A stretch of DNA of 64,000 nucleotides. Source: Escherichia coli (lineage in GTDB: Bacteria; Pseudomonadota; Gammaproteobacteria; Enterobacterales; Enterobacteriaceae). The stretch is taken from the NCBI RefSeq assembly GCF_003334785.1, contig NZ_QOWV01000009.1; one strand, given 5' to 3'. A program made the translations under genes and the position numbers. This document shows positions 55,644 through 55,810 of this stretch, in pieces. The notes under the pieces are model-generated. The model was not told the origin of the DNA. It saw only the letters and a program-made list of their open reading frames with translations, and made no database searches. Positions within the stretch are counted from its first letter, which is position 1. Each line of letters opens with the position of its first letter.

Positions 55644-55810
55644 CCACTCCTGCTATGCTTAAGAAATTATTCATAGACTCTAAATAATTCGAGTTGCAGG
55701 AAGGCGGCAAACGAGTGAAGCCCCAGGAGCTTACATAAGTAAGTGACTGGGGTGAACGAATGCAGCCGCAGCACATGCAACTTGAAGTATGACGAGTATA
55801 GCAGGAGTGG
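55644..55810. repeat. ERIC/IRU-like repetitive element flanked by a 13-bp inverted repeat (CCACTCCTGCTAT / ATAGCAGGAGTGG)
   Basis: Core GTGAAGCCCCAGGAGCTTACATAAGTAAGTGACTGGGGTGAACG matches the ERIC1R/ERIC2 primer regions with one mismatch each; lies in the dxs-yajO intergenic region. Confidence 0.7.

Follow-up and report, generated by a model that had tools for sequence, protein, structure and literature searches.

An ordinary ERIC element within an older Shine-Dalgarno hairpin between dxs and yajO of Escherichia coli, with a candidate sigma-S -10 element and a putative antisense promoter at the K-12-type junction

In Escherichia coli, the essential MEP-pathway gene dxs is followed by yajO, which encodes an alternative DXP-forming enzyme, and the spacer between the two genes contains an ERIC-like sequence bracketed by a perfect inverted repeat. 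Does this repeat belong to the mobile element or to the genes around it, and which of the two matters for the expression of yajO? We addressed this question in a stretch of 64,000 nucleotides of E. coli (contig NZ_QOWV01000009.1; hereafter the window, to which all positions refer). The 491 nt around the spacer were 100% identical to those of MG1655 and DH5alpha (E. coli K-12), and published K-12 coordinates were placed in the window by two relations, window = 55815 - (v2 - 437,359) and window = 55815 - (v3 - 438,135), checked with three 61-mers. The dxs stop codon TAA (55633-55635) and the yajO ATG (55815) delimit a spacer of 179 nt. For comparison, yajO loci were retrieved from 80 Enterobacteriaceae species; dxs lay immediately 5' of yajO in all 80 of them, and the spacer measured 54-75 nt in 75. 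The features of the locus are as follows.

55577-55788, minus strand: antisense RNA of ~212 nt, from the published TSS to the Term-seq 3' end, covering most of the ERIC (55674-55788), the hairpin 5' arm and 59 nt at the end of dxs.
55628-55636, plus strand: candidate sigma-70 extended -10 (TGgCATAAT), proposed from the sequence; it overlaps the dxs stop codon and would serve a 5' end at 55643.
55644-55659, plus strand: hairpin 5' arm, perfect over 13 nt (55644-55656) and 16 nt when extended, with the anti-SD CUCC at 55647-55650.
55652-55662, plus strand: invariant GCTATGCTTAA, agreeing at 11/11 positions with the sigma-S extended -10 KCTAYRCTTAA; the TSS is predicted at ~55666.
55674-55800, plus strand: ERIC/IRU element of 127 bp, with left terminus TAGACTC (55674-55680), right terminus GAGTATA (55794-55800) and core at 55715-55758.
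55795-55803, minus strand: putative antisense extended -10 TGCTATACT, with TG (55803-55802) and C (55801) in the host arm and TATACT (55800-55795) in the ERIC terminus.
55795-55810, plus strand: hairpin 3' arm, host-derived at 55801-55810 and supplied by the ERIC right terminus at 55795-55800, with the yajO Shine-Dalgarno sequence (SD) AGGAG at 55803-55807; A at 55799 is the K-12-type base (G in B1-type alleles).
55815-55817, plus strand: yajO start codon; an abundant sense Term-seq 3' end coincides with the A of the ATG (55815), 5 nt beyond the stem.

The mobile element itself proved to be ordinary. The strong core match reported in the earlier note is well above chance level: positions 55715-55758 agreed at 42 of 44 positions (two mismatches) with a string that we take to be the ERIC core consensus (the ERIC1R/ERIC2 primer region), and none of 100 shuffles of the window contained a match. 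Aligned with five paralogous E. coli copies (upstream of gyrA, pgk-fbaA, yafP, yeiL-psuT and ybhJ-ybhI), the dxs-yajO copy was identical to their majority at 120 of 127 positions. In all copies the likeness began at TATACTC and ended at GAGTATA, which places its limits at 55674 and 55800, with a TA at either end; 5'-TA-3' termini and a 7-bp terminal inverted repeat are described features of ERIC/IRU elements (PMC2229807, Table 1). The left terminus, TAGACTC, has one mismatch to TATACTC that comes from a private substitution (G at 55676), and this copy carries other private substitutions besides. Positions 55674-55800 are a canonical full-length ERIC/IRU miniature inverted-repeat element. The expectation of a structured, transcribed RNA was also borne out, as the ERIC alone folded into a very stable single stem-loop (-56 kcal/mol, z = -8.9, reached by 0 of 200 shuffles) and the copy is transcribed in K-12 according to published Term-seq and p19 dsRNA reads. 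Rfam holds no family for ERIC as such; the whole model (1-129) of V_AS5 (RF02818, Vibrio antisense), a related ERIC-like model, matched at 55673-55796 with 52.5 bits, the gathering score being 96, so that the copy lies below the threshold and is not a member. ERIC is multicopy (median of 6 megablast places per genome), and because about half of the E. coli genomes lack the dxs-yajO copy, the best matches to the element on its own lay at other ERIC loci.

Presence at this site varies between strains, as the earlier note had supposed. The filled allele, with the whole spacer, was found in 2844 of 5426 complete E. coli genomes, and a clean empty site, matching in two pieces with a span 125 bp less, in 48% of them. 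In ATCC 25922 and strain 138 the empty allele has both hairpin arms intact, is 125 bp shorter and reads ...CCACTCCTGCTATGCTTAAGAAATTATTCATGGCAGGAGTGGCAGCATG. Precise removal of the ERIC from MG1655 would leave the sequence TTCATGGCAGG. From the names of the strains, we take the filled alleles to be those of phylogroups A and B1 and the empty ones those of B2 and E. For a duplication of the TA target the picture is mixed: the difference of 125 bp corresponds to the 127 bp of the element minus 2 and K-12 has TA at both ends, but the E. coli empty sites have TG, the B1-type filled alleles TA...TG, and the empty site of Citrobacter sp. MGH106 TA. A long allele carries an additional insert of ~78 bp after the position equivalent to 55761; 121 genomes and E. 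albertii share this insert at 99% identity or more. We consider the E. albertii and E. coli copies orthologous because the private substitutions are common to both; in E. whittamii the site is empty. Filled alleles differ also in the 3' arm. Those of K-12 type have A at 55799 and, with it, the perfect 13-bp repeat, whereas G, a U·G wobble in the RNA, was present in four of five further filled alleles that we sampled (O103 strain WL1467, RM9088 and two more); in the fifth (O111:H8), A is retained at 55799 and position 55803 is G.

The inverted repeat has a different history from that of the element which it flanks. Its arms, CCACTCCTGCTAT (55644-55656) and ATAGCAGGAGTGG (55798-55810), form the perfect 13-bp complement already described in the earlier note, and a repeat finder extended it to 16 nt at 94%; perfect inverted repeats of at least 12 nt were absent from 1000 mononucleotide shuffles of the spacer, the largest being of 11. 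Both arms are present in 80 of the 80 species loci, and the hairpin is kept with compensatory changes in 68 other Enterobacteriaceae species that have no ERIC. Among the 80 loci, GCTCCTGCTATGCTTAA is nearly invariant and GCAGGAG(Y)GG directly precedes the AUG, while the bases beside these motifs covary (CCAC/GTGG, CCGC/GCGG, TCGC/GCGA, CTCT/AGAG and AACGGC/GCCGTT). In 69 ERIC-free spacers the 13-pair helix was 91.9% paired, versus 28-55% for controls with slid partners. Double changes affected five of the 13 pairs, with compensatory series such as CG47/UA10/UG8 and GC28/GU28/AU8/UA2; none of 500 shuffles reached the covariation score, and RNAalifold recovered the same helix. A strand test favoured the sense RNA at three covarying core pairs (95% vs 77% paired) and the antisense at the two outermost ones (64% vs 80%). 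The centre of the helix is invariant: CUCC at 55647-55650 pairs with GGAG at 55804-55807, the yajO SD, and this pairing lies 8-11 nt 5' of the AUG in every species.

We conclude that the inverted repeat is an ancient base-paired leader hairpin of yajO, older than the ERIC insertion, and that it neither belongs to that insertion nor results from it. In the empty allele the stem has 14 bp and the loop 14 nt. The ERIC sits at a TA at the junction of loop and 3' arm, directly 5' of that arm, where its right terminus GAGUAUA takes the place of the displaced CAUG and pairs with CUAUGCU; the insertion has therefore lengthened the stem instead of shortening it. The claimed nesting of the ERIC in the repeat holds in that the element lies inside the arms, although not symmetrically: a host loop of 17 nt (55657-55673) remains on the left, and on the right the arm overlaps the last 3 nt of the ERIC. 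Two other origins for the arms were considered and rejected. A palindromic DNA operator is unlikely given an arm spacing that ranges from ~20 to 150 nt, and the arms are unlike the ERIC termini that a decayed older ERIC would have left.

The invariant GCTATGCTTAA runs from the last bases of the hairpin 5' arm into the loop and would most simply be a sigma-S -10 element. It matches the sigma-S extended -10 consensus KCTAYRCTTAA (PMC5650638) at all 11 positions, with -13C, an AT-rich discriminator and no obvious -35. Only 0.16 matches to the consensus were expected in the window and two occurred, the second one antisense within an ORF of 1120 aa; exactly one match was found in 72 of the 80 species loci, always in the dxs-yajO spacer and on the same strand. 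A sigma-S -10 would explain why bases that are unpaired in many species are yet invariant. Furthermore, yajO has been listed as sigma-S-regulated (PMC4447067). Peano et al. (2015), who cite Weber (2005) for this regulation, assigned to yajO a ChIP peak of sigma-S RNAP at 437,329-437,469 (window 55705-55845), a span that holds the antisense -10 but not the sense motif. The leader hairpin probably contains a sigma-S promoter, whose TSS we predict at ~55666. The TSS tables of Ettwiller (2016) and Yan (2018) have no entry for the dxs-yajO locus, and the sole indicated sense 5' end, given by a cloning primer at 55643, is upstream of the predicted start. We had also considered TGCTATGCT as a plain sigma-70 extended -10, a reading replaced by the former since G-9, C-8 and TTAA are invariant as well. 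A conserved uORF from the AUG of CUAUGCUU was rejected; it has no SD, and its length and frame differ between species.

It is possible, if unlikely, that CUGCUAUGCUUAA owes its invariance to an RNA-level function (a protein, sRNA or ligand site, or a pause signal) instead of a sigma-S promoter. It lies within the RNA whose 5' end Adams et al. (2021) place at 55643, a part of it is unpaired yet conserved in some species, and the sigma-S ChIP peak does not reach it, leaving the sense motif ~45 bp outside with the antisense -10 inside. However, all 11 positions of the consensus are present, including G-9, C-8 and TTAA, which are not needed for pairing. The sole change in the -10 hexamer (locus L056, TATGAT) goes toward the -10 consensus, the other seven departures among the 80 loci all fall in the trailing TAA, and the reported sigma-S regulation of yajO likewise argues for a promoter. 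If the motif is a sigma-S -10, a transcript from ~55666 would not contain the anti-SD and would have an open SD, which would make yajO expression dependent on its own stationary-phase promoter. The probability of the SD being unpaired in such a transcript was predicted to be 0.2-0.7 in K-12, with a 149-nt leader containing the ERIC, and 0.56-0.93 in the empty allele, with a leader of 24 nt.

Transcripts that contain both arms would behave differently. The forward primer with which Adams et al. (2021) cloned the 'entire 5' UTR' of yajO, TCCACTCCTGCTATGCTTAAG, begins at 55643, so that the sense 5' end is presumably located there, one base before the hairpin 5' arm; the CATAAT of the candidate sigma-70 extended -10 that would serve it is not kept in species whose dxs ends in GCCTGA. 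An RNA of 173 nt that spans 55643-55815 would be little more than the closed hairpin enclosing the ERIC; in an ERIC-free strain such as ATCC 25922, its predicted counterpart has ~48 nt. Folded from the 5' arm to +40, the SD GGAG had a predicted probability of 0.00 of being unpaired in the K-12, B1-type, long and empty alleles alike. In any RNA with both arms, whether by read-through from xseB-ispA-dxs or by a start at 55643, the SD would be locked away, yajO would be left untranslated, Rho would terminate transcription early in yajO, and exonucleases would trim the RNA back to the hairpin to give the abundant 3' end at 55815. By these steps the hairpin would insulate yajO from the strongly expressed upstream operon and at the same time cap the mRNA of that operon, and the start at ~55666 would offer yajO expression a route past the block on read-through RNA. 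We infer, then, an SD-sequestering and Rho-coupled function for the leader hairpin. The data of Adams et al. (2021) agree with it: the Term-seq 3' end at v3 438,135(-), with a score of 38,352, maps to window 55815 and is scored Rho-dependent ('Yes', ratio 2.89), and its score as an intrinsic terminator is 1.03; a Rho-dependent region lies at about window 55892, and the fusion of the yajO 5' UTR and ORF increased more than 2-fold in rhoR66S.

The same 3' end raises a second alternative, namely that the hairpin is chiefly a 3'-end structure of the xseB-ispA-dxs mRNA, a terminator or exonuclease barrier in which the pairing of the SD is incidental. The abundance of that end 5 nt past the stem and the start of the stem just 8 nt after the dxs stop would fit such a role. 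Nevertheless, the stem is followed by CAGCAUGCAAUAC, with no U-tract, a terminator scan of the sequence gave no match, and the intrinsic-terminator score and the Rho-dependence also speak against it, as does the invariant CUCC:GGAG at a fixed place before the AUG, which is what a translational block predicts. We find this reading rather unlikely as the chief explanation, but a translational block and a role at the mRNA 3' end are compatible and the difference is one of emphasis. Other connections between both genes were rejected or set aside: read-through of the dxs stop codon to the downstream in-frame TAA, whose frame is not conserved, and translational coupling by a ribosome at the dxs stop, which is too far from the anti-SD (11 nt in E. 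coli, up to 22 nt elsewhere) to open CUCC:GGAG. A 'yajO' RNase III site in Gordon (2017) is a typo for yajQ.

For the ERIC, these predictions leave a modest part. It would be mostly a polymorphic passenger in the hairpin loop, because the SD is predicted to be fully paired in alleles with and without it, and the earlier suggestion that the ERIC affects the coupling of yajO to dxs loses ground, the relevant part being the SD hairpin.

The clearest K-12-specific consequence of the ERIC appears to be an antisense promoter at its right junction. The minus strand reads there CCACTCCTGCTATACTCGTCATA; in K-12-type alleles, the terminal TATACT of the ERIC adjoins the host TGC and would make an antisense extended -10 firing at 55788. 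The start was predicted from the sequence at ~7 nt downstream (window 55788, v2 ~437,386) before we found the published one: an antisense TSS of Thomason at 437,386(+), given in the supplement of Huang (2020), which in window coordinates is 55788 and lies 7 nt past the hexamer. The centre of the sigma-S ChIP peak is 13 nt from this TSS. At the same position the empty alleles have TGCCATGAAT, a poor -10, the B1-type alleles have GCCATACT, in which T-12 is lost, and TGn is absent at the five other ERIC copies examined. We therefore regard the promoter as a likely hybrid of ERIC end and host arm that should be strongest in K-12-type alleles, which would make it ERIC-dependent.

Several K-12 data sets record an RNA from this promoter region. 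Adams et al. (2021) reported an antisense Term-seq 3' end at v3 438,373(+) (window 55577), and the Huang (2020) supplement lists a Conway antisense operon of 564 nt at 437,387-437,951. Huang (2020) described at v2 437,393-437,579 (window 55595-55781) a p19-captured, RNase III-dependent dsRNA cluster, fourth among the clusters over coding genes and labelled 'new antisense', with duplex reads on both strands and antisense p19 reads such as CAUGUGCUGCGGCUGCAUUCG; we set aside the total-RNA table of the same work, in which the strand labels are wrong for yajO and thiI. The antisense RNA would pair with the leader that holds the ERIC and with the 3' end of dxs; cut by RNase III, the duplex would yield this cluster, among the most abundant of the cell. 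A text search of Huang (2020) did not find the word 'ERIC', and the passages of Adams et al. (2021) and Peano et al. (2015) on the locus do not mention it. Genome-wide K-12 data sets have flagged the dxs-yajO spot without noticing the repeat.

An improbable source of the p19 cluster is the sense RNA alone, through the intramolecular hairpin of its ERIC and with no antisense transcript. The ERIC stem is long and stable, and the sense read AGUGAAGCCCCAGGAGCUUACA was counted 79,229 times against 882 for its antisense partner. However, perfectly antisense reads that are not derivable from the other ERIC arm were also abundant (4457 and 3064), the cluster reaches 40 nt into dxs, past any hairpin, and an antisense TSS, operon and 3' end are all on record. 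Both sources may contribute. Equally improbable, in our opinion, is an action of the ERIC like that summarised in reviews for Yersinia, in which the element, co-transcribed with dxs, would expose an RNase E site and change the stability of the dxs or yajO message depending on its orientation. The dxs-yajO copy is indeed co-transcribed, but its right terminus is held paired within the extended outer stem and the documented processing is that of RNase III on a sense/antisense duplex. Finally, the idea that the 13-bp repeat belongs to the mobile element (as an extended terminal repeat, a target-site duplication or a REP/BIME-like remnant), to which the arms flanking the ERIC and the 3-nt overlap might lend some appeal, is refuted by the empty sites, since empty E. 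coli alleles and the 68 ERIC-free species retain both arms at this one locus, and it is further contradicted by the inverted, not direct, orientation of the arms, by the five other ERICs, which have only TATACTC...GAGTATA in common, and by the confinement of the motif to the dxs-yajO spacer in all retrieved loci.

We favour, with a probability of roughly 0.6, a reading in three layers: an ordinary ERIC has entered an older SD hairpin that carries a sigma-S -10, and its right end has added an antisense promoter at the K-12 junction. A more ambitious version, which we hold to be decidedly unlikely, would make the hairpin a dual-use DNA/RNA insulator conserved across Enterobacteriaceae, with the same few bases serving as anti-SD in read-through RNA and, in part, as the sigma-S -10 in the DNA; in K-12-type lineages the ERIC terminus would turn the mirror arm into a sigma-S-like antisense promoter, whose RNA would cause the dxs 3' end and the yajO leader to be processed by RNase III. 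If this were true, ERIC-positive and ERIC-negative E. coli lineages would differ in the expression of two DXP-forming enzymes; any effect of the ERIC on dxs or yajO levels is at present putative.

Under the three-layer reading, one anatomy would account for three flags raised in K-12: the 'new antisense' dsRNA cluster, the sigma-S ChIP peak assigned to yajO and the Rho-dependent 'internal' 3' end. The locus also provides a natural presence/absence experiment, with the ERIC in about half of sequenced E. coli and, among the filled alleles, a single A/G difference that should switch the antisense promoter, so that it can test whether a MITE insertion alters the expression of dxs and yajO. In addition, the strongly conserved hairpin, together with the sigma-S-type -10 inside it, is a candidate for a compact device that uncouples a stress-induced gene from the housekeeping operon directly upstream. 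The ERIC is not new; the conserved hairpin in the leader and the antisense promoter born at the junction seem not to have been described before.

Each of these parts has relatives among known systems. The ERIC/IRU (RU-1) elements of Enterobacteriaceae were reportedly described by Sharples and Lloyd in 1990 and by Hulton et al. in 1991, and the dxs-yajO copy resembles them in its 127 bp, central inverted repeat, TA termini and 7-bp terminal repeat, and in its intergenic position, transcription, multiple copies and filled and empty sites; a long form, in which ~78 bp are inserted at a fixed internal position, occurs as well. It differs in context only, being placed inside a conserved regulatory hairpin that draws its right terminus into the stem. 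Like the Yersinia ERICs, which modulate the stability of co-transcribed mRNAs via RNase E (De Gregorio et al. 2005, summarised in PMC2229807 and PMC10969869), it yields a structured RNA co-transcribed between two genes of one transcription unit; the enzyme documented at dxs-yajO is, in contrast, RNase III, acting on a sense/antisense duplex. According to reviews, the Correia (NEMIS) elements of Neisseria show that MITE termini can supply promoter parts at a junction and that the transcribed stem can be an RNase III substrate. They are, however, an unrelated sequence family, and at dxs-yajO the -10 would lie wholly in the ERIC terminus, with TGn from the host; as far as we could find in the literature, no junction promoter formed by an ERIC terminus has been reported before.

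With the sigma-S promoters that carry KCTAYRCTTAA (Weber et al. 2005), the candidate shares the 11/11 match, -13C, the AT-rich discriminator, the lack of an obvious -35 and a gene reported to be under sigma-S control; it differs in that the motif is also part of an RNA hairpin and that its TSS is a predicted one. The leader hairpin, in turn, resembles the SD-sequestering, Rho-coupled leaders of the class of Adams et al. (2021), in which yajO is listed, by the abundant 3' end at the leader stem, the SD within a helix and the read-through when Rho is inhibited or mutated. Whereas a ligand, an sRNA or a uORF switch has not been identified for yajO, the escape proposed here is an internal promoter past the anti-SD. 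We see in the hairpin and in the junction promoter new examples of kinds that were already known.

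A distant clade carries a diverged ERIC copy between dxs and yajO, in matching orientation and at the homologous TA, directly 5' of the (A)GCAGGAG arm of the yajO leader hairpin; it lacks the substitutions that are private to the copy in E. coli. The following fetched dxs-yajO loci document this case:

L036, L039 (Phytobacter), L046 (Kosakonia sp. S29): diverged ERIC at the homologous TA
L045: internally deleted ERIC remnant only (TTACTCGAAGTAAGACGAGTAA)
L056: relative with an empty site

This distribution suggests either that the junction between loop and stem has been hit repeatedly or that only insertions sparing the stem survive.

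The empty site itself reads CATGG, without the TA, in E. coli (L001, L003) and E. whittamii (L012), whereas it reads CATAG in Citrobacter sp. MGH106 (L019). In view of this difference, K-12 and E. albertii may retain, as their A at 55799, the ancestral target TA. The history of the dxs-yajO ERIC may involve insertion, loss or introgression.

The 'long' form of the element contains an insert of ~78 bp, which forms three hairpins and is placed 3' of the equivalent of window position 55761, as in these examples:

L002, 473-713: long ERIC
L097: long ERIC
L013: long ERIC of E. albertii
L098, 150-380: long ERIC of the yeiS-preT spacer

At an identity of at least 99%, the insert was found in 121 genomes, a class that probably sits at dxs-yajO, since both fetched E. 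coli long alleles (G12 and ETEC4070, not drawn from the 121-genome hit class) lie there. Another 508 genomes have a version at 90-95% identity, and the yeiS-preT ERIC, the one fetched example of this second class, has the insert at the identical internal position, its hairpins differing from the at least 99% form by compensatory changes.

RefSeq starts yajO at the ATG at 55815, a choice supported by where the Shine-Dalgarno (SD) sequence lies. Read from a GTG at 55743, the yajO frame is 24 codons longer (55743-55814) and crosses the right half of the ERIC. A promoter scan also returned, as a pattern match only, TTAAGA-18-AATAAT at 55659-55688 (+), whose -35 box falls in host loop sequence and whose -10 box belongs to the left end of the ERIC; this candidate would produce a sense transcript starting inside the element and devoid of the anti-SD. 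Upstream, the interval that separates the dxs stop from the 5' arm holds, in most species among loci L014-L091, a C-rich, G-poor tract adjoining the hairpin (e.g., UCCCUCCCCUUUUCC), a composition as expected for a Rho-loading (rut) site.

Besides that in the dxs-yajO spacer, the sole match in the window to the sigma-S extended -10 consensus KCTAYRCTTAA is GCTACGCTTAA at 5169-5179 (+), antisense within a 1120-aa ORF (4052-7414, minus strand). The panE-yajQ spacer contains an inverted repeat (49345-49392) whose 18-bp arms match perfectly around a 12-nt loop. The in-vitro-verified RNase III site that Gordon et al. 2017 give at 444,573 (v3) maps to window position 49377, coinciding with this repeat; where their discussion has 'yajO', yajQ is meant, the name being a typo.
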